From IMG/VR virus record IMGVR_UViG_3300033746_000018: a stretch of 45,171 nucleotides of DNA, one strand, 5' to 3'. The DNA comes from a virus. Every line of letters starts with the position of its first letter. Position 1 is the stretch's first letter. Shown here piece after piece: positions 1,712-37,553 of the stretch. Below the pieces are notes generated by a model. That model was not told the origin of the DNA, made no database searches, and saw only the letters and a program-made list of their open reading frames with translations. Both the position numbers and the translations under genes were made by a program.

Positions 1712-3643
1712 ATGATTTTTAACCGACCAACTACATTACAGCAGGAAGCAAGCGACTTATTCCAGGAACAAATATCGCTATTTAATCATTTTGACAGTTA
1801 TCGTAGTCAATGGGACGATATGGCGGTTAGATGGTATAAGCAGGTTGTTGGCTATAAAGAAAAATTTAGGGAAAAGGACGAGGAAGAAAATCACAGATCA
1901 GATATTCATATACCTAGAGCCTATCAGATTGTAGATACTATTCGGGCAAGGTATGTAATGGGATTGTTTAAATCTTCGCCCTATATAGATTTTCTGCCTA
2001 AGCCGACAAATTTTGACAGATTTCCTATGAATATGGCAGAAGATAAAGCGAAGGTGGCTGCTTCTTTAGTTAATGAGCAGTTGGATAAAAACAACATAGT
2101 TTCTAAATACTATGATTATATAACTTCTCTATTAATCTTTCCTTTAGGAATTATGGGTGTTGGGTGGCGATACGAGGAAGATTTTGTAAAGAAGAAAGTA
2201 CCAGTACCAGAGATAATCAGAAATCAATTTGGAGTACCTCAATATACAGGTAGGCAGATATATCAAACCAGGCAGAGTAGAGAAGCTGTTTGGGACGATA
2301 ACGAGATAACTAATATAGATTATTTTGATTTTTGGCCTGACCCTAAAGGTACTAACTTAGACGATTGTCGAGGAGTTTTCCAAAGGGAATTTGTTACTAT
2401 AGATCAGTTAAAAAGCAGATTAGAATTTTTAGATTATTTAGATGAAGGTCGTATTTTCCTAAGAGATCTTAAAGAATTACAGGAATTACAAGGTGCAGCC
2501 AACTTAGAACACGGCCGAGATAAAAGAATGTCAGAGATAGGTTTTTCTTCTGGTGATGTTGATATTTTCAGCAACAACGACTATAAGTCTAGCAAAAATT
2601 CAGAATTAGAATTGTTGCACTATTGGGAAGATAACAGGCATTGTATAACAGTCAACAGGCAGAAAACTATTTATGACGGACCTTCTCCTTACTGGCGACA
2701 CAGGAAGAAACCATTTGTAGTAGGCAAATATGACAGATTACCTTCTGAATTTTACGGAATGAGTGCAGTACAGGTCATTTCTGATATTCAGGAAGAAGAA
2801 AACACTCTCCATAATCAGCGTACAGATAATATTAACTTTATTTTAAATAAGATGTGGAAAGTTAGACGAGGGGCAGACATTGACGAGTCCGAATTGGTAT
2901 CAAGACCACACGGAATTATCTATGTTGATCGCCCAGAAGATGTACAAGAATTTGATATGACAGATGTAGCTTCTTCTGCTTTTAATCAGCAGGGTATGTT
3001 GAAAGGTTTAGCTGAAAATGCACTTGCGACTCCACCTGTTATGCAGGGAGCGGAAAGTACAGGCGACCAAACAGCAACAGAAACTATGAAGCAAACATCT
3101 AATGCTGGAATGAGATTTGAAGTTAAGCAAAAAATATTCGAGGAATTGGGTATTAAGCGTTTAGCACACTTAATGGATATGAACAATCAGCAATTTATTG
3201 ATAGCGAAAGGTTAATTAATATTCCGTTTGAACAGGGTAACGCTTGGCGTGCTATTGATACAGGTGATTTAATAGGTGAATTTGATTACAGGCCAGCAGG
3301 AACTAATGTTGATCCTGCAGCTAATAAAGATGTAAGACGAGAACAATTAACTCATATGCTTCAAATGTTATTACAGTCTGGAGTACCATTCGTTAATTAC
3401 AAAGAATTATTTGAAGAATGGTTGAAGGCTTTTGATATAGAAAATGCAGAAAAATTCTTGTTGTCGGACCAGGAAATGGCTATACAGCAAATGCAACAGC
3501 AACAACAGGCTGCTGCAGAGCAGGGAGGTAATAGACCAACAGCTGCCCAGCAGGCTGATAATGCAAGTACAGGTAGAGCAAGAGGAAGAAGGCCACAGAC
3601 TGAAAGAAACCCTAGTCAACAAGCGTCAGGACAGGTGAGATAA
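1712..3643 (+). CDS. Portal protein (643 aa) with a Q-rich, basic C-terminal tail
   Basis: It is the largest ORF directly after terL and before scaffold and capsid, with portal-typical size and position. The family was not verified by search. Confidence 0.75.
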   Translation: MIFNRPTTLQQEASDLFQEQISLFNHFDSYRSQWDDMAVRWYKQVVGYKEKFREKDEEENHRSDIHIPRAYQIVDTIRARYVMGLFKSSPYIDFLPKPTNFDRFPMNMAEDKAKVAASLVNEQLDKNNIVSKYYDYITSLLIFPLGIMGVGWRYEEDFVKKKVPVPEIIRNQFGVPQYTGRQIYQTRQSREAVWDDNEITNIDYFDFWPDPKGTNLDDCRGVFQREFVTIDQLKSRLEFLDYLDEGRIFLRDLKELQELQGAANLEHGRDKRMSEIGFSSGDVDIFSNNDYKSSKNSELELLHYWEDNRHCITVNRQKTIYDGPSPYWRHRKKPFVVGKYDRLPSEFYGMSAVQVISDIQEEENTLHNQRTDNINFILNKMWKVRRGADIDESELVSRPHGIIYVDRPEDVQEFDMTDVASSAFNQQGMLKGLAENALATPPVMQGAESTGDQTATETMKQTSNAGMRFEVKQKIFEELGIKRLAHLMDMNNQQFIDSERLINIPFEQGNAWRAIDTGDLIGEFDYRPAGTNVDPAANKDVRREQLTHMLQMLLQSGVPFVNYKELFEEWLKAFDIENAEKFLLSDQEMAIQQMQQQQQAAAEQGGNRPTAAQQADNASTGRARGRRPQTERNPSQQASGQVR

Positions 3644-5178: not shown

Positions 5179-6387
5179 ATGGCAGTATTAGATTATAACG
5201 GTCGCAATATTTGGACAGGAACAGATGGAACTCCTGTTACTACTTACAATATTGACTCTGACCGCAGGGATATTGATGTATCGAATGATATAGCCCAATT
5301 AATGCCAGAAGCAACACCATTTTTAAGTATTTTAATGAGGGCTAGAAAAGTACCTGTAAATTCAATGGAATTTATTTGGTATGATGAAGAAGAACAAGTT
5401 TGGTGGACTAAGCTAACTGCCAGTTATTTAGCTGGTACAGCACATACAGAAGAAGTTATCTCTTTAGCTGACGCTTCATTTATCAGACCTAAAGACTTGC
5501 TGAAAAACGGATCAACAGGCGAGATTATGTATGTTAAGTCTAAAGCTGGTAATGATGTAACAGTTGAGAGAGGTTATGGTTATGACGCTCAGGCTTCTAG
5601 TGGTACTGACGCTGTAGCTTCAACTGGTACAGATGATAACATTATGAGAATGTCAAATGCTATGGAAGAAAACTCTAATGCACCTGAAACACACGCTACA
5701 CAGCCTAATAAGTTGTGGAATTTGGTACAAACATTCCGTACACCTTTTGACGCTTCAATGGCTAATCAAATTGAAGGAAAGCGTGCAGGAACTGACACTA
5801 GAACTAGACTCAGTAAGATAAAAGCAGTAGAACACCGAATTGATATTGAAAAGCAAATGATGTTTGGTGAAAGATACGAAGATGTATCTAATAAAGTGAG
5901 AATGACTGGTGGACTTATTCAGTTTATCAAGTCCAATGCTTATGATGTAGGAACTACAAACGGAGGTACATTGTCAGAAGCTGAATTTGAAAACTTCTGC
6001 GAAATGGCTTTCGATTGGGGTAGTAAGCGTAAGTTATTCCTGACTTCACCTAGAATTGGTAGTATTATTAATCAATTTGGTGCAAGCAGAATTGAAACTA
6101 CATCTGGCGAGGAAACCTACGGTATGAGATTAAGACGATTAATTTCATTCCACGGTGATGTAATTATCGCAACAACTAAGCTATTCGAGAAAGATTATGC
6201 TCATACAGGCTTAATGCTTGATATTGAGAATATCGACTATCGTCCAGCTGGCGGTAATGACTCTAAGCTAAGAAAGAATATCCAGGAGAATGACAAGTTA
6301 GGCTGGAAAGACGAGTACCTAACAATGGCTGGATTAAGAGTAAGACTGGAAAAAACACACAGTATTTTAACTGGTGTTACAGGCTAA
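5179..6387 (+). CDS. Major capsid protein candidate (402 aa)
   Basis: It follows the scaffold, has a strong RBS and ends at a strong intrinsic terminator. Size is typical of HK97-fold capsid proteins. Confidence 0.75.
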   Translation: MAVLDYNGRNIWTGTDGTPVTTYNIDSDRRDIDVSNDIAQLMPEATPFLSILMRARKVPVNSMEFIWYDEEEQVWWTKLTASYLAGTAHTEEVISLADASFIRPKDLLKNGSTGEIMYVKSKAGNDVTVERGYGYDAQASSGTDAVASTGTDDNIMRMSNAMEENSNAPETHATQPNKLWNLVQTFRTPFDASMANQIEGKRAGTDTRTRLSKIKAVEHRIDIEKQMMFGERYEDVSNKVRMTGGLIQFIKSNAYDVGTTNGGTLSEAEFENFCEMAFDWGSKRKLFLTSPRIGSIINQFGASRIETTSGEETYGMRLRRLISFHGDVIIATTKLFEKDYAHTGLMLDIENIDYRPAGGNDSKLRKNIQENDKLGWKDEYLTMAGLRVRLEKTHSILTGVTG

Positions 6388-6809: not shown

Positions 6810-8756
6810 GTGAGTATGCAGGAATTAAACTGGAATAACGATAACGAACAAAATTTAGAATTTCCAGTCCATTATTGGAATTATATCGAGAAAATGTTTT
6901 CTCAATTTGGTACAGGTGAGCATATTGTCACTAAAGCTTTTGAAGCAGATAATGATTATTTAGGCTTCACAGATGATTATGATTTTTGCTGGGGGCCTCT
7001 TAATGAAGGCGAAGGATTACCAATACAAGTTTATCCTGACAATTGGGAAACCGACCCTGTTACTAAAATAGAATACACCACACAGGATTATGGATATAAC
7101 GAGTATTCGGGCAGGTTATGGGGGGTATATCAAGCAAGTATAGGCGAAATATATCTGCTTAAAGCTAATGAAGAATTAACTGGTTGGGATAGAAATGAAT
7201 TGTTAGCTTTTTCTCCTACAGGGAGTCAAAAACCGACAATAGAGTTTAATCCAGCAGGGCATTATGAAATAGCAGTAGAAATAACAATAGCTGGTACTGG
7301 AGTTAAAGAAATATGGCTAATGAGTTATCCTTATGAAGGAAGTAGTATAAGAAAAATTTGTAACGGCAGCTCGCCAACTTTAGTATTAAATCACAACAAA
7401 GAGTTAGTTTTGTTTTATGGCGATCAAGAACAAACTAATATTTATTATAGATTAGAAAATGAAAGTTATAATACTGAACACAGTATAGACTATATATTTG
7501 AGCCGGAAAGAACTTTAGACTTCATTAATGCTTTTAAAATTGATGAAAAAGAAATAGTTGCAAAACCATACCCAGAGTTTAGCCCTGACCCAATAGAATA
7601 CAGCGGAAAATTAATAGTTTTTTATAAGCGTGATGATGATTATAAACCTTATAAATACACAATAACAGATGAACTTTACAGATATGTATTTAAATATAAA
7701 GAACCTGTTTTAGAGCCTTATTTTGATGATATTATTAATAGCATTGATATAGATGTAAGTAATTTAACCTGGGAAGATATGAGATATTTAATTAATCTAT
7801 TTTCTTCACCAGAAGCAGATATATATATTGAAGGACAGAAAGAGCAGGAAAGCATATCAACAACGTTAAACACAGCAGGTGAAGGTTCAGTTTTAATAAT
7901 ACCATATAATACAGTATATAAACTTGTGTTAGAAAAAGAAGGTATTATAGAGGACAGCTGGGGATTATTAATATTTAACAATGATGAAACTAAAATGATG
8001 GATATAAATGTACCATTTTTAGGTGATGACAGTAAGCCTGTAGAAAATAACAATATAGATATATCAATTAGTAATATTTTGTGGGATTTAGCAGGTATAG
8101 ATTTAAATATACACGCTTTTAATCAGGAGGATTTAACTGATTTATTCGGAACAACAATAACTATAGAAGCACAAAGAGAACAACCTGAATTATCATCTGT
8201 AACAGATAGCACGGGTAATGCTTTATTTACTGATGTAATACCTTATGAAACAGTATATCAGCTTACTGTTGAGGACAGCAGTTTAGGAATAAATAGAGCT
8301 ATAGGATTATTAAATAATTTTACTCCTGGAAGCAGTCAGAATATAGAGTTGCCGTTTATATCTCCTTTTGTAGAAAATAGCAGTATTGATATTTTAACAG
8401 CGGTAGAATGGGAAACAATGTATATTACTACTACTATAACTGTAAAGGATTTAGCTGGAAATTCTATAGATGGTGCTGATATTACTATTGAAGCACAAAG
8501 AGATATGCCAGAGATTAACTTAACTACAGATGTCAACGGTCAGGTAATAGAAGATTTATTGGTTTATGATACAGCATATAATTTTATTATTTCTAAAACA
8601 GGATATGTAGTGGAAGATAATTTATCGCTATTAGTCGAAAATATAGCAAGTAAGGCAAGAAGTGTAGATATGTATATTTCTGACGGAGAGTTTGATAGAT
8701 CAGAAAATAACAGTATAGACATAGTTGTAAATTCAGTATTGTGGCTGGAGGTATAA
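6810..8756 (+). CDS. Tail or adhesin-like protein (648 aa) with three tandem ~109-aa beta-sandwich modules resembling CarboxypepD_reg domains
   Basis: The repeated motifs are IYIEGQKEQ.../ITIEAQREQ.../ITIEAQRDM..., each followed by TDxxG...Y-T-Y. They are separated by four N-SIDI-x5-W linkers. Confidence 0.6.
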   Translation: MSMQELNWNNDNEQNLEFPVHYWNYIEKMFSQFGTGEHIVTKAFEADNDYLGFTDDYDFCWGPLNEGEGLPIQVYPDNWETDPVTKIEYTTQDYGYNEYSGRLWGVYQASIGEIYLLKANEELTGWDRNELLAFSPTGSQKPTIEFNPAGHYEIAVEITIAGTGVKEIWLMSYPYEGSSIRKICNGSSPTLVLNHNKELVLFYGDQEQTNIYYRLENESYNTEHSIDYIFEPERTLDFINAFKIDEKEIVAKPYPEFSPDPIEYSGKLIVFYKRDDDYKPYKYTITDELYRYVFKYKEPVLEPYFDDIINSIDIDVSNLTWEDMRYLINLFSSPEADIYIEGQKEQESISTTLNTAGEGSVLIIPYNTVYKLVLEKEGIIEDSWGLLIFNNDETKMMDINVPFLGDDSKPVENNNIDISISNILWDLAGIDLNIHAFNQEDLTDLFGTTITIEAQREQPELSSVTDSTGNALFTDVIPYETVYQLTVEDSSLGINRAIGLLNNFTPGSSQNIELPFISPFVENSSIDILTAVEWETMYITTTITVKDLAGNSIDGADITIEAQRDMPEINLTTDVNGQVIEDLLVYDTAYNFIISKTGYVVEDNLSLLVENIASKARSVDMYISDGEFDRSENNSIDIVVNSVLWLEV

Positions 8757-8757: not shown

Positions 8758-10647
8758 ATGAATTTAAACTTTGATTTTGGAATACAGGGTAAAGTTAAAT
8801 ATGAGTTAACTGATACAAGAAACGGAAAAAAAGAAATTATTGAAGAAAATAATATACTTTTGGATAATTATTTGAATAAGTTTTTTACTGGTAATTTTGG
8901 ATTACTTAATGCAAGTGTGTTTAATAGGTGTTATCTTGGAGATAGCAATATAGCACCAACCAGAAGCCAAACAGGACTGCAGGGAAATCAATTAGCGGTT
9001 GTAAATCCTGTAGAAAAAGTAGAAGATAATTTAGGCTTATTAATAAACAATAATAACCAAATAACAAACCTCACAGGACATTCAAATTATGTTTATTCTG
9101 TAGCCTTCTCACCTGACGGCAACTATGTAGTCAGCGGTAGTGATGATAACACAGCAAAGGTGTGGGAGTATGATACAGGTAATGTGATAACAACCTTCAC
9201 AGGACATTCAGATGATGTTCGTTCTGTAGCCTTCTCACCTGACGGTAACTATGTAGTCAGCGGAAGCTGGGATAACACAGCAAAGGTGTGGGAAGTAGCA
9301 ACAGGTAATGTGATAACAACCTTCACAGGACATTCGTATGATGTTTATTCTGTAGCCTTCTCACCTGACGGCAACTATGTAGTCAGCGGAAGCGGGGATA
9401 TCACAGCAAAGGTGTGGGAAGTAGCAACAGGTAATGTGATAACAACCTTCACAGGACATTCAGATGTTGTTTATTCTGTAACCTTCTCACCTGACGGCAA
9501 CTATGTAGTCAGCGGTAGTGATGATAGCACAGTAAAGGTGTGGGAAGTAGCAACAGGTAATGTGATAACAACCTTCACAGGACATTCGTCTGATGTTGAA
9601 TCTGTAGCCTTCTCACCTGACGGTAACTATGTAGTCAGTGGAAGCTGGGATAACACAGCAAAGGTGTGGGAAGTAGCAACAGGTAATGTGATAACAACCT
9701 TCACAGGACATTCGTATGATGTTCGTTCTGTAGCCTTCTCACCTGACGGTAACTATGTAGTCAGTGGAAGCTGGGATAACACAGTAAAGGTGTGGGAAGT
9801 AGCAACAGGTAATGTGATAACAACCTTCACAGGACATTCAGATGATGTTTATTCTGTAGCCTTCTCACCTGACGGTAACTATGTAGTCAGTGGAAGCTGG
9901 GATAACACAGCAAAGGTGTGGGAGTTTAATGATAAACTAATAAACTCTGTCAGGATGGGATATAAGTATAGATTTAATGCAGGCACAGGTACTTCTATGT
10001 TAATAAAAGAAATAGCATTAAGAACAGGAGATTATTCTACAAGTTCATCATATGATGATAGATATAATAATGACTGGGTGGCAAGACAGGTTCCAACTAA
10101 CGCTATAGATAAAAAAGATTATCATCAATTGGATATAACCTGGGTTATAGAAGTTAAAAGTCCAACTATTTATTATACAACTACAATAGCTGACGGGCAA
10201 AGAGATGGTACTTCAATAGATATTGATGTAGAAATAGCAAATAGAGCTTTAGCTGATATATCAAAATTTAATCTTAAATCATTAGATAGTTTTTTCGGAA
10301 TATCAGGTACACCGCAATTTGCATTAGGCACTTCAAATGCTAAGAAATATCCTTTAGGGACTGAAAATATTGAATTAGGCTTATCTTTAGAAGGAACTGA
10401 CATATCAGGCGGATTTATAGCACCATTTGAAGTAACACAAGAACCTTATACAGCTGGTAGTTATTCAAGAACATTTAGGGTAGGTTTAGAGTCAGACCAA
10501 GGCAATCACGCTGACGGTTTGGGAGAAATAATATTAAGGAATAGTGCAGGAGATTATTTCGGTAGAGTGTTATTCACTCCACCACTTGATAAGGTTAACA
10601 CTTATAGATTTTACTTTGATATAACATTTTCCTTAAACCCTAGTTAA
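8758..10647 (+). CDS. Tail-fibre-like protein (629 aa) with an inserted seven-blade WD40 beta-propeller
   Basis: There are seven consecutive 42-aa units FTGHSxxVxSVAFSPDGNYVVSGSxDxTxKVWEVATGNVITT. The flanks show a P2 gpH N-terminal-like pattern (LGDSNIAPTRSQTGLQG ... LIKEIALRTGD). Confidence 0.8.
   Translation: MNLNFDFGIQGKVKYELTDTRNGKKEIIEENNILLDNYLNKFFTGNFGLLNASVFNRCYLGDSNIAPTRSQTGLQGNQLAVVNPVEKVEDNLGLLINNNNQITNLTGHSNYVYSVAFSPDGNYVVSGSDDNTAKVWEYDTGNVITTFTGHSDDVRSVAFSPDGNYVVSGSWDNTAKVWEVATGNVITTFTGHSYDVYSVAFSPDGNYVVSGSGDITAKVWEVATGNVITTFTGHSDVVYSVTFSPDGNYVVSGSDDSTVKVWEVATGNVITTFTGHSSDVESVAFSPDGNYVVSGSWDNTAKVWEVATGNVITTFTGHSYDVRSVAFSPDGNYVVSGSWDNTVKVWEVATGNVITTFTGHSDDVYSVAFSPDGNYVVSGSWDNTAKVWEFNDKLINSVRMGYKYRFNAGTGTSMLIKEIALRTGDYSTSSSYDDRYNNDWVARQVPTNAIDKKDYHQLDITWVIEVKSPTIYYTTTIADGQRDGTSIDIDVEIANRALADISKFNLKSLDSFFGISGTPQFALGTSNAKKYPLGTENIELGLSLEGTDISGGFIAPFEVTQEPYTAGSYSRTFRVGLESDQGNHADGLGEIILRNSAGDYFGRVLFTPPLDKVNTYRFYFDITFSLNPS
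9067..9948 (+). repeat. Seven tandem 126-bp near-identical direct repeats encoding the WD40 blades
   Basis: Unit starts are at 9067, 9193, 9319, 9445, 9571, 9697 and 9823. Units 2 and 6 differ at about 5 of 126 nt. Confidence 0.95.
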
Positions 10648-10659: not shown

Positions 10660-11097
10660 ATGAATTTTGTAGAAAAAGGAGTTTACGGTGATGAAAATAT
10701 GCCTGATGTTAATAATTACCGTACATTAGCATTAGGCACACGAGAAAGTCCTAATATTGATTTATCAGAAGCATTTACAGTATTAGACGAGATAAATTCG
10801 GGCAAGATTAGTTGGTTTAGTAGACCTATCCAGGGAAATGAGATAGATATACTTACTTCTATGGATAGCGGCAATAGTTGGGATAAAATGATTAACGGGC
10901 AGTATATACAGAATGTTAAACAGCTAAATGATGATCCATTTATCAAGCTGCGGTATGTTATTAGAAGTTATATATCTATGATAATACCCGAAAACAGTCC
11001 TAAAGTTTATTCTTTAGTAATAACTTTAAGTGATAAAGAACAAAATACATGGGATAAAGAGGTAAAAATACCATTAGAGTGGAATGAGGTGAGCTAA
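10660..11097 (+). CDS. Hypothetical structural-module protein (145 aa)
   Basis: ORF track. Tightly packed in the virion module. Confidence 0.6.
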   Translation: MNFVEKGVYGDENMPDVNNYRTLALGTRESPNIDLSEAFTVLDEINSGKISWFSRPIQGNEIDILTSMDSGNSWDKMINGQYIQNVKQLNDDPFIKLRYVIRSYISMIIPENSPKVYSLVITLSDKEQNTWDKEVKIPLEWNEVS

Positions 11098-11628
11098 ATG
11101 ACAGGTACAGAGATACAAAGTTATGTAGAAAGCAGGTTAGGAAGGACATTAAGTCCTGATGATATATTGCTTGCTATAAATGAATGTTTAGACGAAATAG
11201 CTGATTTAGCCCTTCTTTATGCAACAATAGATTTAGATGTTACTGACGGCACTCAATGGTATGAACTGCCAGAAGATTTTTCAACAATAGAACATCTGAT
11301 TATCTATGACAACGGAGAACATTATTATGAAGGCTGGATATATAGAAATGGTAGTATAAGAATACCTGACGCTGGAAGTTATAAGATAGTTGCAAGAAAA
11401 ATGCCTGATTATCTAAATGATATAGCAGAGCCTATCAATAATCTTCACAGAATGTATAATAATGCAGTTAAATATTATGTTTTAGGCTGGATAAGAGAAA
11501 ATGAAGATCTAGACGATCAGATTTCAGAAAAGTATTATCAGAAGTTTACAGAAAAAGTCCAAAGAGCAGCAAGCAGTTTAATTTCTACTAAATCACCAGC
11601 TAAAGTACAGGTGATCCGCCGTGCCTAA
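11098..11628 (+). CDS. Hypothetical structural-module protein (176 aa), possible head-tail adaptor
   Basis: ORF track. The ATG abuts the preceding stop (TAAATG). The adaptor role is a guess from position only. Confidence 0.55.
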   Translation: MTGTEIQSYVESRLGRTLSPDDILLAINECLDEIADLALLYATIDLDVTDGTQWYELPEDFSTIEHLIIYDNGEHYYEGWIYRNGSIRIPDAGSYKIVARKMPDYLNDIAEPINNLHRMYNNAVKYYVLGWIRENEDLDDQISEKYYQKFTEKVQRAASSLISTKSPAKVQVIRRA

Positions 11629-13915: not shown

Positions 13916-14506
13916 ATGGGCTTAGGAAGTGGTTTTGGCTATGGAGGCTCGACTATAGACAGAACAAATTATAATAGTGGTAATAGTAGAAATGATACTG
14001 CAAATAACAGTTATAGTAAAAGCAACAGAAGTGGAAGCAGTAATCGCTATTCATCAAACACACCAACAAGTACAAATAATGTTTTTAGTCATAAAGGGGA
14101 AAGTGGAAGTAGTAATCGTTATTCATCAAACACACCAACTTTAAATTATGCAAATGATAAACAAAATATTTTAGAAAATGCACCTTCTAAATCAATTACA
14201 GAAAGCTATAAAATAGCAGAAAATCCTAATCCTTTTATAAGGGACGTTATGAGTATAGGACAGAAATACAATACTTATCAAAGACAGGCTGCTAATCCAG
14301 AATATAATCAATATATTCAAAATAAGAATAATGAATACAGCAATAAATACAGTAATTTCAGATGGGGCAATTATAATTGGAATGATTTAGGACAGAATGA
14401 TTTTCAAAGTCAGCAAAAATTAACTGGAATATTTAATAATACAGGAAGTAATTTTATGAATAATTCTGCGACTTTATCAATGGCAAAACAGGCTTTATTC
14501 GGCTAA
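13916..14506 (+). CDS. N/S-rich low-complexity virion-module protein (196 aa) with an internal duplication
   Basis: A 38-nt repeat occurs at 14030-14067 and 14102-14139 with 2 mismatches. It encodes GSSNRYSSNTPT twice. Confidence 0.6.
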   Translation: MGLGSGFGYGGSTIDRTNYNSGNSRNDTANNSYSKSNRSGSSNRYSSNTPTSTNNVFSHKGESGSSNRYSSNTPTLNYANDKQNILENAPSKSITESYKIAENPNPFIRDVMSIGQKYNTYQRQAANPEYNQYIQNKNNEYSNKYSNFRWGNYNWNDLGQNDFQSQQKLTGIFNNTGSNFMNNSATLSMAKQALFG

Positions 14507-16117: not shown

Positions 16118-19100
16118 ATGGCTAAAGCAATACCTTTTCCTGGAATGGAAAAAGAAAACAACAATAAAATAAATGTAAAAGCTATACCTTTTCCTGATAT
16201 GCAGATGAATACAGAACAAAATATCAGCCAGCCAGTTAATCAACCTCAGCCGCAGTATAATGACGGCAACATATTTACTGATACTGCCAAAGATTTCGCA
16301 GGAGGATCAGCTAGATTATTTGGTAATATAGCAAATGGTGCTAGATGGCTGGGTAAATTCGTTTATTCAGCTGCAGCACAACCTCAAAATGCTTTTGCAG
16401 AATTAACAGGTAATGAACAAATGAAAGTTGACAGCAGCGACGCTTTTAAGATACCAGGGTTTAATCTTATAGAAGAAGGGTTAGACAGCTATTCTGACGC
16501 TTCTAATCAAGCTGCAGAAACCATTTTTGATAGCAAGAGTATGGAAAGTAAGCAGTTGGGTAATAATATGATAGAAAGTCTAAAAGAAGGCAGATTTATG
16601 GACTTTGGCAAGCAGCTAGTTAGCGTAACAGCACTGACTGCTCCTAATATATTACTTGCTATGATGGGCGGTTTTGCAGGTACAGCAGCACAGGGTTTAG
16701 GTGCTACAAGCACAGCAGGTAGTATGTTAGGTACTTCTAATGTACTATCGCAAGCCCTACCCAAAGCAGTTATTGGATTATCAGCTGCTGGTGGCGAATA
16801 TAGAGAAACAGAAGGTGATCCTGAACTATCAGACCAACAAGAGTTACTATCAGCAGGTGTAAAAGGTACTTCCGAAGTGATTTGGGAAAGTTTAGTAACA
16901 CTCCCTATGATAGATGATATTGTGAGAACTAATAAAATAGCTGGCGACCAAATGCAAAAAGGTATAGAATGGGGTCTTGCAAACTGGCTTAAATCAGGTG
17001 CTAAAGGTGGTTTGAGTGAAGCTGGCGAGGAAATGGGTACAGAAGCAACAAACTATATTTCTGATGTAATAATTAAAGGAAAACAATTTAATGCAGACGA
17101 ATTCACTTCTTTAGTTGCTAACGCTGGATTAGGTGCTATTGCTACAGGTGCTATTTTATCTTCAACAGGTGATTATCGTCAAAATAATGCTCAAAATAGA
17201 AGGTATGAAATGAACGAGCTTTCAAAAGCACTTAGACAATTAGAAGAATTAAAGCAAAAAGCCGAACAAGAAGCTAATCAGCAAAAACAAAGAAGAATAG
17301 AAGAAGTAAGCAATCAAATTAATAATAAAATATCTCAAATGCAACAGCAAGAGGAAATAGAAAGGCAAAGACAACAAAGTGGAGAAGCTACCCAAAATGC
17401 TTTCCAAGGTTTTCAGGGAACAATGGCTGAACAAAAAGCTGCAGCAGTTGCTAAACAAAGAATTTTAGAAAACTTAATCAATAACCAGCAAGATTTAAAC
17501 ACTTTTACAGTTAATATAGATAACAATAATTATGCTATTGTAAGAAATATGAATGATAATATTTTAGTTGATGTATTCCAGGGCAACCAGCGACAGGGTA
17601 CTATGACTGCTGAAAGTATGGAAGAATTGTTTACCGTACTTGCTAACAACGGATATGATCTATCAACTGTTACTCCATTTGAAACAGCAACAAGAGAACA
17701 GGTGCAGCAGGCAGAAATAGCTGAAAATCAACCACAGGCAGCACAGAATTTACTTAGCAGCCGTCAGAAAATGATTAATGATATAGTAGGAAGAATTAAT
17801 CAGTATGGCGGCCAGGTAGATTTAAGTCAATATGATATGCCTACAGCTGCAGATGATGTAGATACCGTTCGACAAAAATCGCTAAATGTTTTATCAGATT
17901 TAAGAAAGCAGTTAGTAGAAGCTAGACAAAATTATACACCACAGCCACAGCAACAGGAAGATGTCGCTCAAACTCCAATTGAACAGCCAAATAATGTAGA
18001 TAATACTAATTTTAATGTAGATAATTTTATAAATAAACAATTAAATAATGGCGCTGGATATTATTCGGAAGTTCATTACACCAACACAGATAATTATAAT
18101 TCTATTATTAATTCTCAATTTGAAATTTTACCAGAAGATGACAAAAGAAAATTATATGGGGACAATATAATATCAAATGCTTTATATACAGCACCATTAG
18201 ACGCTGATGAATGGACTAGAGGTTCTAGAGCTAGATTGCCTAATTATGATAAAAGAATTATCGTTAAAATTCCTAAGCAAAATATAATTGAAATCAATAA
18301 TCCTAATGAATATGCTGAAATTTGGAAAAAATATGTTGATAACGATAAATACAATAACGCTATTAATTCTTTGAATGAAGCAATATCTAAAATAGGTCAG
18401 AGAAATGAAGTTACAGAAGAAATGACACAAAAATTTATCGAAAATGAATGGATTAAACCAAACGAAGCAGAAAAAAGTAAATATTATGATTGGGACAATG
18501 CTTTAGAACAAATTAATTTTTTACCAAAAGAAGCTGTAGAAAGAATGAAACAAGATGGTATAAAAGGTATTAAATTTAATATACCGATTTTAGGAGGAAG
18601 GCAAACTGCTATATTTGACCCTTCTATAATTGAAATTGAACAATCAGTAGAACAGGATAATACTATAGAGCAGGAAAGCCAAACTGATGAAGGTTTAAAT
18701 ACACAGTCAGATACAACAGTAGAAGAAACAGGCCAATATATACAACAGAGCAATGAGCAAATAGATAATTTTAGAGAAATGGCTTCGCAAGAGAATACTC
18801 CTGGTATTCCAGAAGAATTACAATCTTATGTAATTCATAACGGTGCTAAATTTGATGTTATAGATACGAACGGCAATACCTGGACTTATCAAAGAATAGA
18901 CGACGCTATCAATGAAGCCAGAAAAACTAGAGCAGCTATTGAAGGCCAACCTATCCAAGAAGGCCAACAGCAACAAGAAGATATTGTTGAAGATGAAGGA
19001 CAACAAGAAGGCGAAGTTGTAGAAGAACAGCCACAAATTAATATTCAGGCAGAAGGTAGAGAGTCAGAAACAGCTACACCAAATAATACAGAAGTGAAAA

Positions 19101-22100
19101 CTAAATTTGCTGTAATGAACGCTGATGATATACAGGCTTCTCACGATACCAGTTTAAATGTTAATGAGAACTTCCCGCAGGAATTGCAGCCACGAGATAG
19201 AGGTAAAGCAGCCACACAGGAACAGATCATAAACATAGTAAACAATCTTAATCCTAAAAAGTTGGGCGACTCTTATTCTACAGCTACAGGATCACCGATA
19301 TTAGGACCAGATGGATATGTAGAAGTTGGTAACGGTAGAACAATAGCCTTAAAAACTTTATATGAGCAAAATCATAAAAATGCTGAAACTTATCGTCAAT
19401 GGCTTAGAGATAATGCTGAACAATTTGGATTAACAGCTAAACAAATTGATAATGTAGATAACCCTGTATTAGTTAGAGTAAGGACTTCTGATGTCGAAGA
19501 TAGGGTAAGGTTTGTGCAGGACGCCAACGCTAGAGAAAGTGCCAGTATGTCTGCAAGTGAGCAGGCTATGGTGGACGCTGACAGAATAACACAGGACTTA
19601 TTAAATAAATTTGTACCCCACGATGATGGATTAATTAATATTTCAGCAAATAAACCTTTTATTAATCAGTTTATGGATCAGGTAGTGGGTAAAGCTGAAA
19701 AAGGCGAGTTTTTAGATGAAAAAGGTTATTTAAACCAAGCAGGTATCAGAAAAGTTAAAAACGCTTTATTCGCAGCAGCTTATGATGATATTAATATTTT
19801 AGCTGAAATATCAGAGTCAACTTCTAGTAATCTTAAAAATGTTACAGGTGCTATGATGGAAGCAGCACCACGAATGGTAAATATTCAAGACCAGATGAAT
19901 AAAGGAATACTACCTGATTTAGATATAAGCCAGGACTTAGTAGAAGCTGTTAAACTGTATAAAACAATCAAAAATTCCGATAAATCATTCGACAATTATT
20001 TTCAGCAGCAGAATATGTTTGGCGAAGATAACTATACTCCTATCCAGGAAAGTCTTGTAAGAATGTTTGAAAATAATAAGCGTAGTCGCAAAGCATTAAG
20101 AGAAATACTGATAGATTACACTTATAGAGTTGAACACGCTGGGCGTGCTGATATGGACTCTATGTTTGATATTGAGCAGCCGACTAAAGAAAATTTATTA
20201 AGGCAATCAGTAGAAGCTACAGTAGGAAAAACTAATACAAGTCAAGAAACACTATTCGGTAAAGAGCCTAAAAATATTAATATCAACGGTAAAAATGTTA
20301 AAATGAGCAACAATGCTACAGAATTTAGTCAGAAGAATAAGTATGCTAGAGCAAAGTTTACTCTTAACGATAAAAAAATAGAAATGCCTGAACTCTTAGA
20401 TATAATTCTAGCCTTATCAGAAGGCAAATATCCACAGATTATTAAAAGTTTACGGAATACAGGTACATTAGGATATTATGCTCCTAAAAAAGGTCAGATA
20501 GGGCTTAATCCTGATATATTTGTGGGTGAAACTATTGTAAGAGAAAGAGTACCTGTTAAACAATTCGACAGGAGATTTCAGGAAATACAGACTACAATAG
20601 CAAATGATCCTGATATTGGCGAAGTAGAATACAGGACAAGTTTTTCTAAAAATTATGTTGAGATAAGAGTTATTAGAGTCGATCCAGAATATGCTGCACA
20701 GACAATATCGCACGAATTAGGACACTTAATAGACTTTATACCCCGTGATGATTTTGATGATGGCAGCTTAATGGACCAAATGAGTATTATCTACAAAGGC
20801 CAGAAAGATGAAGTCCTGGACGCTATTAGAGATAGTAATAACTTAGGACCACGAATTAAAACTGAACTAAAAAGATTATCTATGAAGTGGAAACCTTTTG
20901 ATCCGAAAAATAATCTTAAATTTACCAAATATCGCTTTAGCCCAGAGGAACTTTACGCTGACGCTATGAGTGTGTTCTTCTTAGACCCTGATATGCTGCA
21001 GCAGGAAGCACCATTATTTAGTCAGTTTATCCAGAAAAGTATATCTAAAAAGCCAGCAGTAAAAAAATCATATAATACTGTAAGGCACTTAATGGAAAAT
21101 AGATCTGAAATGATAAACAAAACCTTTGACAATTTACAAGAAGGTATGGTTGACGGTGTAGAACAGACTAAAAAGAAGATACAGCGTAGAGAACGGGGAG
21201 TAAAAAGTGGTTTTGATTGGCTAATAGAAAGTTTTATTGATAAAAATTCAGCCCTCTACAAATATTTCAGGGGTGAATACAGCGATACTGGAGAAAAAGG
21301 ACGGTTATCCAGGGAAGCAAGAAATAAAATGGAGGAAATAGCTTATATGTCCTCTGAGGTAGAAGATTACCTCTACAATATAGGCCAGATAATAGAAGGA
21401 TTATCAAATTATGATATAGACTTCTTAGATTTTAACTCTTTCTTATTTAATAAAAGAGTTTTGGGCGACAGAAGTAAATTTGCTAACCCACTTTTTGTTA
21501 ATACAGTTAGAGCAGAAGAAATGCAGCAGGCTTTATTAGATAAATATGGAGAAGAAAAATATCAAAAAATAGTTAACGCTGCAGAAAAATATTATCAATT
21601 AAGACAGGAAAGAATTATACCTATAATGGAAAAATCTAATATGTTTACAGAAGCGGCTATGGAAAAAGTTAAAAATAATAAAGAGTATGTAACTTTTGAG
21701 GTAGTAGATTATATTAATACTGAATTTGGCGAAGGTACTGGCGATATAATTATGCGGCAATATGGTACAGGTAGGAAAATAAGTAATCCACTTGTTGCCA
21801 CAATGCTTAAAGATATGAGTATAATCAGTTCTATCCGTATTAACGAGTCTAAGGTGGCTGCAGTAAAAGCATTAAAGAAAATAGCCCCAGAGTCAATAAG
21901 ACAAGCACCAACAAAAGAAATATACGGTAAGATAATACCTAAAGACTCTACAGACGCTGATGAAGGATTAATAACTTTTACAGTTAACGGCAAATTAGAC
22001 GGATATTTAGTTGAAAAAGATATAGCTGACCTATACGAATATACTCCACACAAGGCTAATGCAGCTACAAATACTATTTTATCAATAGTCCAGGGTATGA

Positions 22101-23602
22101 AGTCGATAATGGTATCTCACAACCCAGGTTGGATGATTTTTAACATTCCACGAGATTTCTTTGCTACAGTTATGAATAACCCTGAAATTGGTATAAAAGA
22201 TATTCCAGCATTAGCCCACGAGTACAAGAAGGCTTTTTCAGAAGCCTGGAATAATGTAAGGCACAATAAGAGATCAGAAGATATTTCATATATGAGAAGA
22301 AATAGAATGTTAACCATAGACAGAATGTATAGACCTTCTGACAGTTATATGGAAGATGATACTCAACAGCTATTAACTGAAATCTTTGATTATAACGAAC
22401 AAAGTGGGGAAGAACACAGCAGATTGCAGAAATTAATACCTGATAAAGTCCGTAGTGCTTGGGAGGGATTAGACAACTTCGGTCAGGTGTCAGAAATGAC
22501 AGGCCAGATTGCTGGATATAGAATGTTGAAGAATATGACTAATCTATCAGAAGGCGATTTAGCCCACAGAGTAAGGACCAGAGTCGGTACTCCTGACTTC
22601 AAGCAAAGAGGTGCTTTACACTCAATTACTAATAACTTATTTATCTTCTCAACAATTAGGAAATCAGGTTGGACTGCTGCAGCTGAAAGTTTTAGGCAAA
22701 ATCCAGGCACATTCTTATTTAAAGTTGCGTTATTAAGTTTGCTGCCTAAATTACTGCAGTTAGGAGCAGAAGAAGCTGATGAGTTATTCCCTGAAAGCGA
22801 ATTTGCTAAAAAGATAGCAGAAACAATGGAAGGCGTCAGCGAATATAAAAAAGAAACTTATTTAGTAGTTCCTGTATGGAAAGCAAACGGCAAAGCAATA
22901 ACTATACAACTGCCACAGGATTTTATCGGGCAGGCTGTAACTTCATTAGTTTATAATGCAGCCCGTGGAGAATGGGGAGATGTTGCAGGTACAGCCTGGA
23001 CTGAATTACCGTGGAATACAAGTAATCTTAACCCGTTATTGCAGGCCGCAGCTGATGTTCAAAGGTTAACATCTGGAGAGAATATTTACGATACCTGGCG
23101 GGGAAGAAATGTAATTTCAGAGGAAGCTATGCTGACTAATAATGTCGGTCAGAAACTTAAAGAATTTGGATTATATGAGTTCTTTAACTTAGGAGGTAGT
23201 GCAATAGTTAATCCTTCTATTGCTTATGCTGACGGCACTTTAGAAGCATTAAGTAATATCATACCTTTTAATGCAGTTAAGCGGCTAATAAGTGTGTCAG
23301 AGTCTGGATATTATGAAGATGTAACAAAAGTGTACCAGGATCAGAAAAAATATACTCAAATGGTCGCTAATTATAATAATTCAAGGAGATATGGCGAAGA
23401 TTTAAGGTACTCACGAAAAGAAATAATGGAAGCTAAAAGGAATTTATCACAACTAAATAAGCTGATTAGGCACTTCGCTAATATCAACAGGCAAATTAAG
23501 TACGCTCAAAGCCAGGGTAAAAAAGAAACAGTAGATAAACTAGAAAGACAAAAAATTAATTTGGCTCGTAGATATAATAGCAAAGAGCCGCTTAGTGATT
23601 AG
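16118..23602 (+). CDS. Giant virion-associated polyvalent protein (2494 aa). It has a Gly/Ala-rich membrane-like N-terminus, a coiled coil, a ParB/Srx-like segment and a zincin HExxH metallopeptidase.
   Basis: It is a single uninterrupted ORF. QPRDR is at 19187-19201, GNGR at 19328-19339 and HELGH at 20711-20725. It is the last gene before the lysis cassette. Confidence 0.7.
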   Translation: MAKAIPFPGMEKENNNKINVKAIPFPDMQMNTEQNISQPVNQPQPQYNDGNIFTDTAKDFAGGSARLFGNIANGARWLGKFVYSAAAQPQNAFAELTGNEQMKVDSSDAFKIPGFNLIEEGLDSYSDASNQAAETIFDSKSMESKQLGNNMIESLKEGRFMDFGKQLVSVTALTAPNILLAMMGGFAGTAAQGLGATSTAGSMLGTSNVLSQALPKAVIGLSAAGGEYRETEGDPELSDQQELLSAGVKGTSEVIWESLVTLPMIDDIVRTNKIAGDQMQKGIEWGLANWLKSGAKGGLSEAGEEMGTEATNYISDVIIKGKQFNADEFTSLVANAGLGAIATGAILSSTGDYRQNNAQNRRYEMNELSKALRQLEELKQKAEQEANQQKQRRIEEVSNQINNKISQMQQQEEIERQRQQSGEATQNAFQGFQGTMAEQKAAAVAKQRILENLINNQQDLNTFTVNIDNNNYAIVRNMNDNILVDVFQGNQRQGTMTAESMEELFTVLANNGYDLSTVTPFETATREQVQQAEIAENQPQAAQNLLSSRQKMINDIVGRINQYGGQVDLSQYDMPTAADDVDTVRQKSLNVLSDLRKQLVEARQNYTPQPQQQEDVAQTPIEQPNNVDNTNFNVDNFINKQLNNGAGYYSEVHYTNTDNYNSIINSQFEILPEDDKRKLYGDNIISNALYTAPLDADEWTRGSRARLPNYDKRIIVKIPKQNIIEINNPNEYAEIWKKYVDNDKYNNAINSLNEAISKIGQRNEVTEEMTQKFIENEWIKPNEAEKSKYYDWDNALEQINFLPKEAVERMKQDGIKGIKFNIPILGGRQTAIFDPSIIEIEQSVEQDNTIEQESQTDEGLNTQSDTTVEETGQYIQQSNEQIDNFREMASQENTPGIPEELQSYVIHNGAKFDVIDTNGNTWTYQRIDDAINEARKTRAAIEGQPIQEGQQQQEDIVEDEGQQEGEVVEEQPQINIQAEGRESETATPNNTEVKTKFAVMNADDIQASHDTSLNVNENFPQELQPRDRGKAATQEQIINIVNNLNPKKLGDSYSTATGSPILGPDGYVEVGNGRTIALKTLYEQNHKNAETYRQWLRDNAEQFGLTAKQIDNVDNPVLVRVRTSDVEDRVRFVQDANARESASMSASEQAMVDADRITQDLLNKFVPHDDGLINISANKPFINQFMDQVVGKAEKGEFLDEKGYLNQAGIRKVKNALFAAAYDDINILAEISESTSSNLKNVTGAMMEAAPRMVNIQDQMNKGILPDLDISQDLVEAVKLYKTIKNSDKSFDNYFQQQNMFGEDNYTPIQESLVRMFENNKRSRKALREILIDYTYRVEHAGRADMDSMFDIEQPTKENLLRQSVEATVGKTNTSQETLFGKEPKNININGKNVKMSNNATEFSQKNKYARAKFTLNDKKIEMPELLDIILALSEGKYPQIIKSLRNTGTLGYYAPKKGQIGLNPDIFVGETIVRERVPVKQFDRRFQEIQTTIANDPDIGEVEYRTSFSKNYVEIRVIRVDPEYAAQTISHELGHLIDFIPRDDFDDGSLMDQMSIIYKGQKDEVLDAIRDSNNLGPRIKTELKRLSMKWKPFDPKNNLKFTKYRFSPEELYADAMSVFFLDPDMLQQEAPLFSQFIQKSISKKPAVKKSYNTVRHLMENRSEMINKTFDNLQEGMVDGVEQTKKKIQRRERGVKSGFDWLIESFIDKNSALYKYFRGEYSDTGEKGRLSREARNKMEEIAYMSSEVEDYLYNIGQIIEGLSNYDIDFLDFNSFLFNKRVLGDRSKFANPLFVNTVRAEEMQQALLDKYGEEKYQKIVNAAEKYYQLRQERIIPIMEKSNMFTEAAMEKVKNNKEYVTFEVVDYINTEFGEGTGDIIMRQYGTGRKISNPLVATMLKDMSIISSIRINESKVAAVKALKKIAPESIRQAPTKEIYGKIIPKDSTDADEGLITFTVNGKLDGYLVEKDIADLYEYTPHKANAATNTILSIVQGMKSIMVSHNPGWMIFNIPRDFFATVMNNPEIGIKDIPALAHEYKKAFSEAWNNVRHNKRSEDISYMRRNRMLTIDRMYRPSDSYMEDDTQQLLTEIFDYNEQSGEEHSRLQKLIPDKVRSAWEGLDNFGQVSEMTGQIAGYRMLKNMTNLSEGDLAHRVRTRVGTPDFKQRGALHSITNNLFIFSTIRKSGWTAAAESFRQNPGTFLFKVALLSLLPKLLQLGAEEADELFPESEFAKKIAETMEGVSEYKKETYLVVPVWKANGKAITIQLPQDFIGQAVTSLVYNAARGEWGDVAGTAWTELPWNTSNLNPLLQAAADVQRLTSGENIYDTWRGRNVISEEAMLTNNVGQKLKEFGLYEFFNLGGSAIVNPSIAYADGTLEALSNIIPFNAVKRLISVSESGYYEDVTKVYQDQKKYTQMVANYNNSRRYGEDLRYSRKEIMEAKRNLSQLNKLIRHFANINRQIKYAQSQGKKETVDKLERQKINLARRYNSKEPLSD

Positions 23603-35471: not shown

Positions 35472-36031
35472 TGTTTCGTATTAGAGTAAGCAATCACGCC
35501 CATAGCAGGTGGACTGAAAGAGTCGGGAAGTTTTGGAAAAAGAATAAGATAGCGGGTTATATATCTACCCGCTTTCTCCCTAAGTTAAGGCAGGGGATTA
35601 AGCCGTATGTAATAGAAAATCAATCGTTTTACTTATTTTTTACAGGCGAAATTAATGAAAAGCTGGTGTTTTCAGTATTGACACCTGATAGCAGCGGACT
35701 TTGGAGCGGGTGGTCGGTGGTTACGGTTATTACTGACGAGCAGATAGACAGCATAACAACTTATTATGATGTATTATATCAGGAGGTTACGGGTAATGAG
35801 CAAAAAAGTAGTGGACCTGGCAAAGTACAGAAAACTGGCAGAGAGAAGGAAGGAACTCAAGAAAAGAGAGCGGGCGTTGATCCGATACCTGATGAAGTTA
35901 GCAAAGGAGGACTAATGGACCTTACAAAAATTAAGGAAGATTTGAGAGAAGATTATCCAGGACTGCCTAATTATATGATTGACAGGATAGCAGAGGAAGC
36001 TGCGGAGAAGGTAGCAGCAGAAGATGATTAA
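35471..36031 (+). CDS. Hypothetical protein (186 aa)
   Basis: ORF track. The ATG overlaps the upstream stop. Confidence 0.6.
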   Translation: MFRIRVSNHAHSRWTERVGKFWKKNKIAGYISTRFLPKLRQGIKPYVIENQSFYLFFTGEINEKLVFSVLTPDSSGLWSGWSVVTVITDEQIDSITTYYDVLYQEVTGNEQKSSGPGKVQKTGREKEGTQEKRAGVDPIPDEVSKGGLMDLTKIKEDLREDYPGLPNYMIDRIAEEAAEKVAAEDD

Positions 36032-36110
36032 TGAAATAGCCCGCTGGTTAGTAATGATATGTTTTATAGTAATGTTTATTGCTGCAGGTGGTAGCAAAGG
36101 AGGTAGTTAA
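36024..36110 (+). CDS. Possible 28-aa transmembrane micropeptide
   Basis: Hand translation gives MINEIARWLVMICFIVMFIAAGGSKGGS. It has an ATGATTAA overlap with the upstream stop. It conflicts with the 5' end of the 36079 ORF. Confidence 0.3.
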   Translation: MINEIARWLVMICFIVMFIAAGGSKGGS

Positions 36111-36261
36111 TATTACACGCTGGAATAACCTGACTAGAGAAAAAGCCCGCAAGTTAGGGATAGAAGGCTTTTATGAGTTGCACCAAATGGAAATGAAGGA
36201 AGCCGACAGTATTAATGATCTATTAGAAAAACAGGAGAACAAAGAAAAAGACCAGGATTAA
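36079..36261 (+). CDS. Hypothetical protein (up to 60 aa) with an uncertain start
   Basis: ORF track. AAGGAGG at 36098-36104 lies inside the ORF and has no canonical start codon after it. Confidence 0.35.
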   Translation: MLQVVAKEVVNITRWNNLTREKARKLGIEGFYELHQMEMKEADSINDLLEKQENKEKDQD

Positions 36262-36281
36262 GCCCCTGGTCCTTTCTTTTT
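36250..36281 (+). terminator. Rho-independent terminator at the convergence of the rightward early operon and the leftward operon
   Basis: gaccagg-attaagcc-cctggtc followed by ctttcttttt. Confidence 0.7.
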
Positions 36282-36327
36282 GAGTATAGCAGCCACCACC
36301 AATAGCCCGCCAGTTATCAATATATAA

Positions 36328-36621
36328 TTAGTTATCGCTATCATATTGTAAAGCCCTGACTAATTCTTTTGCTGCAGGCTCATTAATCTGGCCTGATAAC
36401 CATAGATCATCTATTACCTGTCTAGCTTCTTCTATCGCTTCTCTTTCCTTAATACCTGGTAGCTTATAATATTTATCTACCATTCTGCTGCCTGGATCCT
36501 GGTGGCCGTTCATTATCTTAGACATATGAGATTTACTGACTCCGATTAGCTTTCCCATTTCCTGCTGGTTGAGATTTCTTTCCTCCATATATTCTTTGAT
36601 TTTTTTTGTGATTTCGTGCAT
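36328..36621 (-). CDS. XRE-family HTH regulator (97 aa)
   Basis: I chose the start at 36621 because it follows AAGGAGGG. The HTH segment is NLNQQEMGKLIGVSKSHMSKIMNG. Confidence 0.75.
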   Translation of the reverse strand: MHEITKKIKEYMEERNLNQQEMGKLIGVSKSHMSKIMNGHQDPGSRMVDKYYKLPGIKEREAIEEARQVIDDLWLSGQINEPAAKELVRALQYDSDN

Positions 36622-37468: not shown

Positions 37469-37553
37469 TATAATTTCCTCCTTTTGATTTTGTGCAGCCA
37501 GCGGTTAACTGGCCGCTTAATTATTAATTCTTGATTATCTGCTCAACTCCTGC

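Follow-up and report, generated by a model that had tools for sequence, protein, structure and literature searches.

The host range of a phage is decided by the tips of its tail fibres, which are known to vary by module swapping, by point mutation and by mutagenesis through diversity-generating retroelements (DGRs). Examples of beta-propellers among phage receptor-binding modules are a platform with five blades in Gp45 of Staphylococcus phage phi11 and a sialidase propeller with six blades in the K1F endosialidase. The WD40 propeller is the commonest protein-interaction platform of eukaryotes. The Mtd protein of Bordetella phage BPP-1 is reportedly a tail-fibre tip with a C-type-lectin fold whose variation is produced by a DGR, with its reverse transcriptase and template repeat. 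Swapping gp40 for an orthologue in the phiKMV-like phage 41S1, or the C206Y substitution alone, changes the range of hosts on which it forms plaques (PMC12846835). Among the structural genes of phage Ar-KM, divergence is greatest in the three that follow the conserved anchor fibre, and their products were proposed to form a flexible distal complex that cryo-electron microscopy (cryo-EM) did not resolve (bioRxiv 10.64898/2026.05.18.726046). In fungi, positive selection acts on codons (7,9) and (25,27) of the HET-E/NWD WD40 repeats, whose residues map to the interaction face at the top of the propeller (PMC1805685). Here we analysed a DNA stretch of 45,171 nucleotides from a short-tailed phage (IMG/VR record IMGVR_UViG_3300033746_000018, hereafter the window), in which the gene at 8758..10647 (+ strand) joins a gp40-type tail-fibre scaffold to an inserted WD40 propeller, as judged from the list of open reading frames (ORFs), seven Pfam WD40 matches and an AlphaFold2 model. 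We consider, with a probability of roughly 60%, that its product is a gp40-type virion tail-fibre subunit with the WD40 propeller as a variable receptor-binding head.

The gene is an ATG-to-stop ORF encoding 629 amino acids (aa) plus the stop codon. The Pfam WD40 model PF00400 matched the protein over seven stretches (321 bits against a cut-off of 27, E-value 3.8e-99), and whole-propeller Pfam models matched more strongly still (e.g., PF25173, E 3.9e-112). Tandem Repeats Finder reported a 126-bp unit in 6.8 copies with 92% matches at 9061..9923, and the seven 126-bp (42-aa) units together occupy aa 102-395 (9061..9942, + strand). All seven carry the consensus ..TGHS..V.SV.FSPDG..VVSGS.D.T.KVWE.., and the WD40 signature residues (GH, S/T in strand b, D in the b-c turn and W in strand c) are present in every unit. 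A first-pass annotation of this DNA had placed seven canonical WD40 units at about residues 104-397, between two sets of flanking motifs, and both the units and the motifs were found in the protein. Since the seven units are all distinct, the array is not an assembler loop. The propeller also differs in composition from its surroundings. GC content at third codon positions reaches 0.357 in the propeller, whereas the flanks of the gene have 0.18-0.19 and other virion genes 0.20-0.29. Codon choice is different too, with ACC, GCC and AAC enriched and ACT and GCT absent. An array that arose by sevenfold amplification of one unit provides an effective sample of about 42 codons, and the composition is no more than a hint that the founder unit was recently acquired; it may also be due to chance.

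We examined the predicted structure of the protein with AlphaFold2, using a small family alignment, which gave a mean predicted local distance difference test (pLDDT) score of 79.5 and a predicted template-modelling score (pTM) of 0.70. Residues 101-389 of the model form 28 strands arranged as seven blades of four, with pLDDT values of 92-97. The initial strand comes before the first GH motif, fitting the 3+1 "velcro" closure of the fold. The model aligned with a 298-aa WD-repeat protein of Moumouvirus over 279 columns (template-modelling score (TM) 0.81, root-mean-square deviation 2.2 Å). The earlier suggestion of one complete, closed seven-bladed propeller thus agrees with the predicted monomer and with the WD40 profile matches.

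The sequences on either side of the propeller make up a scaffold that consists of two tandem homologous beta-sandwich domains of about 165 aa each. A model of the insert-free relative P0007, computed from 71 insert-free sequences, showed two beta-rich domains (pLDDT 91.8, pTM 0.89). Comparison of the N-half with the C-half of the scaffold by hhalign (probability 97.9%, E 4.6e-13) revealed an internal duplication, as expected from the first-pass description of a second, similar domain at the C-terminus. The N-terminal part of domain 1 (aa 1-101; 8758..9060, + strand; pLDDT 70-93) was delimited by alignment with insert-free relatives. It contains a long beta-hairpin, a helix, a "CYLGDSNIAP..R.QTGLQG" strand and the first arm of the hairpin that bears the insert, and it is covered by the profile alignments to phiKMV gp40 and Ponderosa gp046 described below. 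The C-terminal part of domain 1 (about aa 396-511; 9943..10290, + strand; pLDDT 75-92 for aa 397-500), likewise placed by alignment, begins with the return arm of the hairpin, "MGYKYRFNAGTGT", followed by "IKEIALR...WVARQVP..IDKKDYHQLDITWVIEV" and "GQRDG". Domain 2 (about aa 512-629; 10291..10644, + strand), which hhalign identifies as a duplicate of the domain 1 core, carries the motifs "ALGTSNAKKYP" and "GLGEIILRNS..YFGRVLFTPPLDKVNTYRFYFDITFSL". The border between the two domains was taken from the P0007 model and the internal-duplication alignment and is approximate. In the window model, aa 510-554 have a pLDDT below 50, and domain 2 is weaker there than in the P0007 model. By alignment, the insert lies between the two arms of a beta-hairpin, which correspond to P0007 strands 92-101 and 104-113. 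The propeller fits such a hairpin tip because the velcro closure brings its own N- and C-termini together. The view that the propeller is grafted into a loop of a fibre-type scaffold therefore holds, with the tip of a beta-hairpin as the site.

The flanks alone (aa 1-101 plus 398-629) had no Pfam match even at E<=10, tblastn with the insert-deleted scaffold and with the central family member P0041 found no matches among 50,697 GenBank phages, a scan of IMG/VR with the C-flank of the window protein had no matches, and scaffold sequence profiles found nothing significant in the PDB. The link to cultured phages was reached solely through fold search and profile comparison. A search of 5.8 billion proteins with the insert-deleted scaffold returned seven relatives, five of them full-length or nearly so, which have the flanks in common and carry 0, 1, 2, 3 or about 4 units at one site. 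An insert-free family profile was then made from P0007, P0009 and P0010 together with both flanks of the window protein, and its search of 1.84 billion cluster representatives yielded 328 proteins at E<=1e-3. The top 150 of these are mostly 275-375 aa long and lack the insert. The same scaffold without the propeller thus exists in P0007 and about 100 clusters, and about 80% of the family works without any insert.

These insert-free relatives connect the scaffold with tail fibres. The PHROG 4176 family, annotated "tail fiber protein", matched 65 of the 71 insert-free relatives (best E 9e-79), and the interrupted window protein itself had a weak match to phrog_5417 as its sole PHROG match. Foldseek searches of BFVD gave full-length matches to proteins of about 300 aa from cultured podophages (E 1e-12 to 1e-17, TM 0.57-0.67), including proteins annotated as tail fibres in Stenotrophomonas phage Ponderosa and Xanthomonas phage Xaa_vB_phi31. 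The Ponderosa protein, gp046 (311 aa), is annotated "tail fiber" with similarity to a phiKMV tail fibre, and its gene belongs to a four-gene tail-fibre cluster at the T7 gp17 position. Profile comparison by hhalign aligned the family over its full length with Ponderosa gp046 (probability 98.9%, E 4e-17) and with phiKMV gp40 (CAD44231; probability 98.3%, E 1.4e-14), which the phiKMV GenBank record describes as "putative tail fiber protein; structural protein". At the level of sequence profiles, the scaffold is a full-length homologue of phiKMV gp40, in line with the initial assignment of the protein to the tail-fibre type. The two-domain gp40-like fold was also matched in BFVD by proteins of archaeal filamentous viruses (SIFV ORF60, a SIFV2 gp53-like protein and SBFV2; Foldseek E 1e-8 to 1e-9) and by small single-domain proteins of haloarchaeal tailed viruses.

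The flanks had originally been likened to the N-domains of P2 gpH-type tail-collar fibres. P2 gpH and Mu gpS (PF12571, formerly DUF3751) indeed have a similar motif order, with a strand and a helix, then "..VGDG..P.P...QTGL.." and then "..E(L/I)G(L/I)....G.L.A..". This register was reproduced by hhalign when the N-half of the scaffold was compared with 114 PF12571-annotated N-domains, in the expected alignment over 67 columns (probability 43%, E 2.5e-4). Membership in the family is not established at this probability; the window flanks have no Pfam match, and a single one of the 71 relatives matched PF12571, at an E-value of 0.0087. Against the same alignment, the full scaffold reached a probability of 20% and the C-half one of 0.8% (E 0.066, not significant). 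This alignment was taken from a large protein search, as the 80 loci found by scanning IMG/VR for gpH N-domains were all at least 96% identical and unfit for a profile. The PDB fold search gave no match to myophage fibre bases. In architecture, gpH runs on into a long fibre shaft, whereas the window scaffold consists of two globular domains alone. A distant kinship to P2 gpH and DUF3751 proteins is possible on sequence grounds.

We further asked how often the insert recurs among relatives of the window protein. At least 21 clusters (50% identity), with proteins of 607-707 aa, carry a propeller-sized insert at the same site. In these 21 clusters the match to the family profile is split, and its C-terminal part restarts at about profile position 88-103, except in P0054, where it restarts at position 52. 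Eight of the ten inserts tested matched propeller models of the WD40 clan. The inserts include near-identical WD40 arrays (P0013 and P0054, seven units each), a diverged WD40 array (P0023) and others that are barely repetitive. Because a propeller-sized insert occupies the same beta-hairpin in so many clusters, the architecture is recurrent and is not a chimera. In BFVD, almost the whole window model aligned by Foldseek with A0A6J5SDD4, a protein of an uncultured phage (647 columns); judged from this long alignment, a UniProt protein appears to have the same architecture already. The first-pass annotation held that a propeller used as a receptor-binding head would be a new kind of phage receptor-binding module. 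In view of these relatives it is not a one-off, and its role in receptor binding is putative. Our literature search found no paper on a WD40 propeller in a phage fibre, with only incidental co-mentions of the two, and none on near-identical-repeat diversification of a phage receptor-binding protein.

A search seeded by the insert-free P0007 uncovered a sister clade with YVTN/PD40-like insert units ("LPxxGxGCAFSPDGKYLAVAH..PYITVYD") in 1, 2, 4 or at least 6 copies. In this clade (P0008-P0012, P0014, P0015, P0018 and P0022), near-identical units sit at the same hairpin, and their variation falls in two loops, "GxGxG" and "AHxxxP". This suggests that the logic of diversification is shared although the blade sequence differs.

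The differences among the seven units of the window array are not evenly distributed. Nonsynonymous differences were found at unit positions 9, 10, 12, 15, 28, 30 and 32 and at the boundary positions, and the remaining core positions show synonymous differences only. At positions 9, 10, 12, 28, 30 and 32 the proportion of nonsynonymous differences (pN) is 0.356, compared with a proportion of synonymous differences (pS) of 0.171 and a pN of 0.005 in the rest of the unit. An independent array, in the related contig L089, gave a pN of 0.445 at the same six positions, compared with a pS of 0.165-0.176 and a pN of 0.005 elsewhere. The P0013 and P0054 arrays vary at the same positions as the window. 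The pairs (10,12) and (28,30) border the invariant residues V11 and D29, and their spacing equals that of the HET-E codons (7,9) and (25,27).

Variation is also concentrated in this gene when related contigs are compared. Between the window and the contigs L089 and L090, the 900 nt upstream of the gene are 96-97% identical and the 900 nt downstream 89-95%, and within the WD40 gene identity is 70-72% in the N-flank and 76-84% in the C-flank. These nucleotide comparisons mark the WD40 gene as a divergence hot spot within a conserved module. Contigs L004 and L089 have flanks that are 100% identical and entirely different residues at the variable propeller positions. The relative P0013 (628 aa) has an N-flank of the L089/P0002 type, a C-flank of the window/P0004 type and an array mixing units with "TK" and "NY" frameworks; it looks recombinant, through recombination inside the array or through chimeric metagenome assembly. 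In the window, blastn with the unit found only the array itself, and no ORF context with a reverse-transcriptase-like YxDD motif was found. With no second copy of the unit and no reverse-transcriptase-like ORF in the window, the array was ruled out as a DGR target.

The number of units differs between contigs with otherwise identical sequences. Contig L001 matches the window over 5.3 kb at 100% identity but lacks exactly 630 bp, i.e., five units, so that two remain (L001 2588-3847 compared with 9294..9923 of the window). At its junction, R2-specific sequence is joined to the 3' end of R7, the two having about 32 bp of exact sequence in common. Contig L004 has three units within flanks identical to those of the seven-unit L089, and the same pattern was found for P0010/P0011 and P0009/P0012. 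L001 and L004 are MEGAHIT k141 contigs, and L091 is interrupted within its own array. Assembly from short reads is documented to drop or invent repeats when WD40 units of 126 bp are nearly identical (PMC12222747). As the documented short-read errors mainly shorten arrays, the short arrays are the suspect versions. Arrays with diverged blades, which an assembler would not collapse (L090 and P0023), have seven blades; P0054 also has seven units, although units 5-7 repeat units 1-3 and its count is less secure. We take seven units as the true number and regard the contigs that have identical flanks and 1-4 units as probable collapses of short-read assembly; the L001 form could be an assembler artefact or a real deletion allele. 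As an account of the short alleles, we rejected as the main reading an oligomeric propeller assembled from 1-3 blades per chain, since trimers of 1, 2, 3 or 4 blades give inconsistent totals. This arrangement is further disfavoured by the seven blades of every non-collapsible array and by the identical flanks that accompany the short alleles.

The genomic environment of the gene was then considered. It lies downstream from the genes for a SU10-type portal (1712..3643) and the major capsid protein (5179..6387), and its immediate upstream neighbour (6810..8756, + strand) encodes a 648-aa protein with a CarboxypepD_reg/Ig-like (Big_1-like) domain (PF13620, E 2e-9) and visibly repeated segments of about 100 aa. 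A 145-aa ORF with no assigned function follows (10660..11097, + strand) and is syntenic in all related contigs. The tail genes proper start after it with a head-to-tail adaptor of the SU10 type (11098..11628, + strand; PF24175, E 9.6e-11), a family also annotated in L001 and L005, and further virion genes come after the adaptor. Gene order is the same in all related contigs, and the 648-aa gene is syntenic in L001, L004, L089 and L090. The first-pass annotation had set the gene between an adhesin-like protein and other tail genes. This needs correcting, as the gene is located between the major capsid gene and the head-to-tail adaptor and not simply among tail genes. The 648-aa protein may be a partner in the same appendage; neither it nor a 497-aa neighbour had sequence matches in the PDB. 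Elsewhere in the virion module, a 2494-aa ORF (16118..23602, + strand) contains a ddrB-like ParB superfamily domain at aa 989-1122 (PF18763, E 3.5e-35) and may encode a giant protein, internal or ejected, that includes a module of the DNA-binding or nuclease-like kind. A 196-aa ORF among the tail genes (13916..14506, + strand) is rich in Ser and Asn, of low complexity, and has an internal duplication, "GSSNRYSSNTPT". At 36000..40000 the otherwise plus-strand genome is occupied by a block of ORFs on the minus strand, where GC and AT skew are inverted. No tRNA genes were found in the window.

Taken as a receptor-binding tail-fibre subunit, the protein would work as follows. By homology, the scaffold would place it in the distal, variable part of the podophage fibre apparatus, where it would act as the anchor, and the propeller spliced into the domain 1 hairpin tip would be the receptor-binding head. 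The hairpin tip, which tolerates an insert of 300 aa, is probably exposed and distal. The loops that follow "GHS" and surround "GS-x-D" make up the top face of the propeller, which would bind a host-cell surface structure. Recombination or gene conversion among the 126-bp units would keep the seven units nearly identical, and diversifying selection would concentrate amino-acid change at about six loop positions. With near-identical units and few selected loop positions, specificity could be quickly re-assorted without a DGR. Presence in the virion and a role in host range are known for homologues (the phiKMV gp40 label and the 41S1 gp40 swap), and by analogy both may extend to the window protein.

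Several observations weigh against this reading. The gene lies between the capsid and SU10-type adaptor genes and not at the T7 gp17 position of phiKMV-like gp40, and a position before the adaptor makes a neck or head appendage possible. Even for the gp40-type proteins, the position in the virion is unresolved in the cryo-EM study of Ar-KM (bioRxiv 10.64898/2026.05.18.726046). The architecture, the homology to gp40, the repeated use of one insert site and the confinement of the variation to a few positions are shown by the analysis, whereas we infer where the window protein lies in the virion, how it oligomerises, that it binds a receptor and that recombination homogenises the units. The assignment of the variable positions to the top face was taken from the WD40 literature and not measured on model coordinates, the variation at loop positions could partly reflect relaxed constraint, and the ratios of nonsynonymous to synonymous change (dN/dS) above 1 come from small counts within paralogous units. 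Metagenomic short-read assembly may in addition scramble the order and number of units (PMC12222747). Finally, the PDB fold search returned one significant match, to HFTV1 gp44, a baseplate hub (E 7.9e-7), and no fibre. The hhalign comparison placed this similarity at gp44 residues 418-533 with weak statistics, and the domain seems to be common to tail-tip proteins. The likeness lies in the middle region of gp44, and we did not read it as a sign of a baseplate-hub identity for the window protein.

The alternative that survives best, although we judge it rather unlikely, is a virion appendage that does not set host range: a general adhesin or decoration that might bind glycans or particles in the environment, a fibre of the neck or head resembling other accessory Ig-like decorations, or a purely structural docking platform for another fibre subunit such as the 648-aa or 145-aa neighbour. 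It would suit the place of the gene between capsid and adaptor beside an Ig-like/CarboxypepD_reg protein, the classic use of WD40 domains as protein-protein scaffolds, and the large insert-free share of the family, which functions without a propeller. However, diversifying change on the binding face is not what a docking platform for a conserved partner would be expected to show, nor would its gene be expected to be the most divergent in a conserved module, and the homologue gp40 does affect host range.

Action of the propeller inside the host cell, after ejection or expression, is improbable. WD40 domains mostly bind intracellular proteins, and hypervariable sites within arrays of near-identical WD40 units are a typical feature of immune sensors inside cells (PMC1805685; PMC12222747), so that the propeller could be imagined to capture a variable host protein that is a target of defence or takeover. 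The scaffold is nevertheless homologous from end to end with a tail-fibre structural protein, the gene belongs to a conserved virion module, and no features of an ejection protein are seen. A propeller with enzymatic activity on a polymer of the host surface, which it would break down or modify as a lactonase, sialidase-like enzyme or depolymerase in the manner of tailspikes that contain propellers, seems more improbable again: some inserts of the family weakly match Lactonase and PD40 models, and BFVD relatives are automatically named "Lactonase, 7-bladed beta propeller", yet the window units are canonical G-beta-type WD40 units (H7, the S of "SGS", D29 and W35) with no conserved catalytic motif, and the only variable residues are those that an active site would keep fixed. 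Least probable of all is a chimeric misjoin or wrong copy number hiding a true gene without a closed propeller, for although the 100% identical flanks around two (L001) or three (L004) units, the break in L091 and the tendency of short-read assembly to omit or create repeats speak for it, the window has seven distinct in-frame units, L089 and P0013 also have seven near-identical ones, the diverged blades of L090 and P0023 cannot be collapsed or duplicated by an assembler, and the 21 or more clusters have their inserts at the same site.

A more far-reaching proposal, which is tentative but possible, is that the array of the receptor-binding head is a self-contained, retroelement-independent generator of host-range diversity. 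Unequal crossing-over and gene conversion would reshuffle the loop residues, copy number would truly change, and the alleles with 1-4 units would be genuine variants. The array would then be the viral counterpart, on the attacker's side, of the WD40 sensors of fungal NOD-like receptors (NLRs).

Compared with described systems, the locus is closest in its scaffold to the gp40-type proteins of phiKMV-like phages (Autographiviridae; CAD44231 and Ponderosa gp046), with which it has full-length homology and the same two-domain fold (Foldseek E about 1e-17). Ar-KM gp46 and 41S1 gp40 are probably gp40-type by gene order. In the window as in these phages, the gene is hypervariable within a conserved structural module. 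The gp40-type proteins have about 290-320 aa and no insert, whereas the window protein carries a 294-aa WD40 propeller in the domain 1 hairpin; their genes follow those for internal virion (core) proteins, at the T7 gp17 position of phages that encode an RNA polymerase, whereas the window phage has a SU10-type portal and adaptor. The result also gives a testable role to the poorly resolved gp40-type subunit of phiKMV-like therapeutic phages.

As a host-contact module of a tail appendage, the propeller can be set beside phi11 Gp45 and the K1F endosialidase, whose propellers are not known to be of the WD40 type or to consist of near-identical repeats and are linear fibre modules rather than loop insertions. 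Mtd is said to combine a rigid scaffold with a handful of hypervariable ligand-contact residues and rapid switching of tropism, and the window protein would resemble it in this respect. It differs in its WD40 fold and in that no template copy or reverse transcriptase was found in the window, so variation would come from mutation and exchange of units. If confirmed as a receptor-binding head, the propeller would be a fold new to the receptor-binding repertoire and a compact scaffold for display that can be engineered (about 6 variable residues x 7 blades), and it would explain why such genes are badly assembled and overlooked in metagenomes.

The array itself is most similar to those of the HET-E/HET-D/NWD proteins of Podospora anserina, which also consist of 42-aa, 126-bp WD40 units of very high mutual identity. 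Amino-acid variation in both is restricted to two pairs of positions, located in the D-A and B-C loops next to conserved residues, with dN/dS above 1 (PMC1805685), and both show apparent polymorphism in repeat number together with short-read assembly problems (PMC12222747). The fungal proteins are intracellular immune receptors with a NACHT domain and 2-15 units, and they form a multigene family that exchanges units. In contrast, the window has a single seven-unit array in a phage structural protein, with no NACHT or NB-ARC domain in the protein, no other copy of the unit in the window and no such gene family in the genome. With its units 92% identical in DNA, above the level of about 85% that marks such arrays, the window array resembles the WD40 type with high internal conservation (HIC) of the HET-E/NWD proteins in its pattern and is not a member of that family. 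The locus suggests a further route of variation for phage fibres, in which repeats are kept near-identical and only the ligand-contact residues are diversified, following the same logic as the fungal immune receptors.

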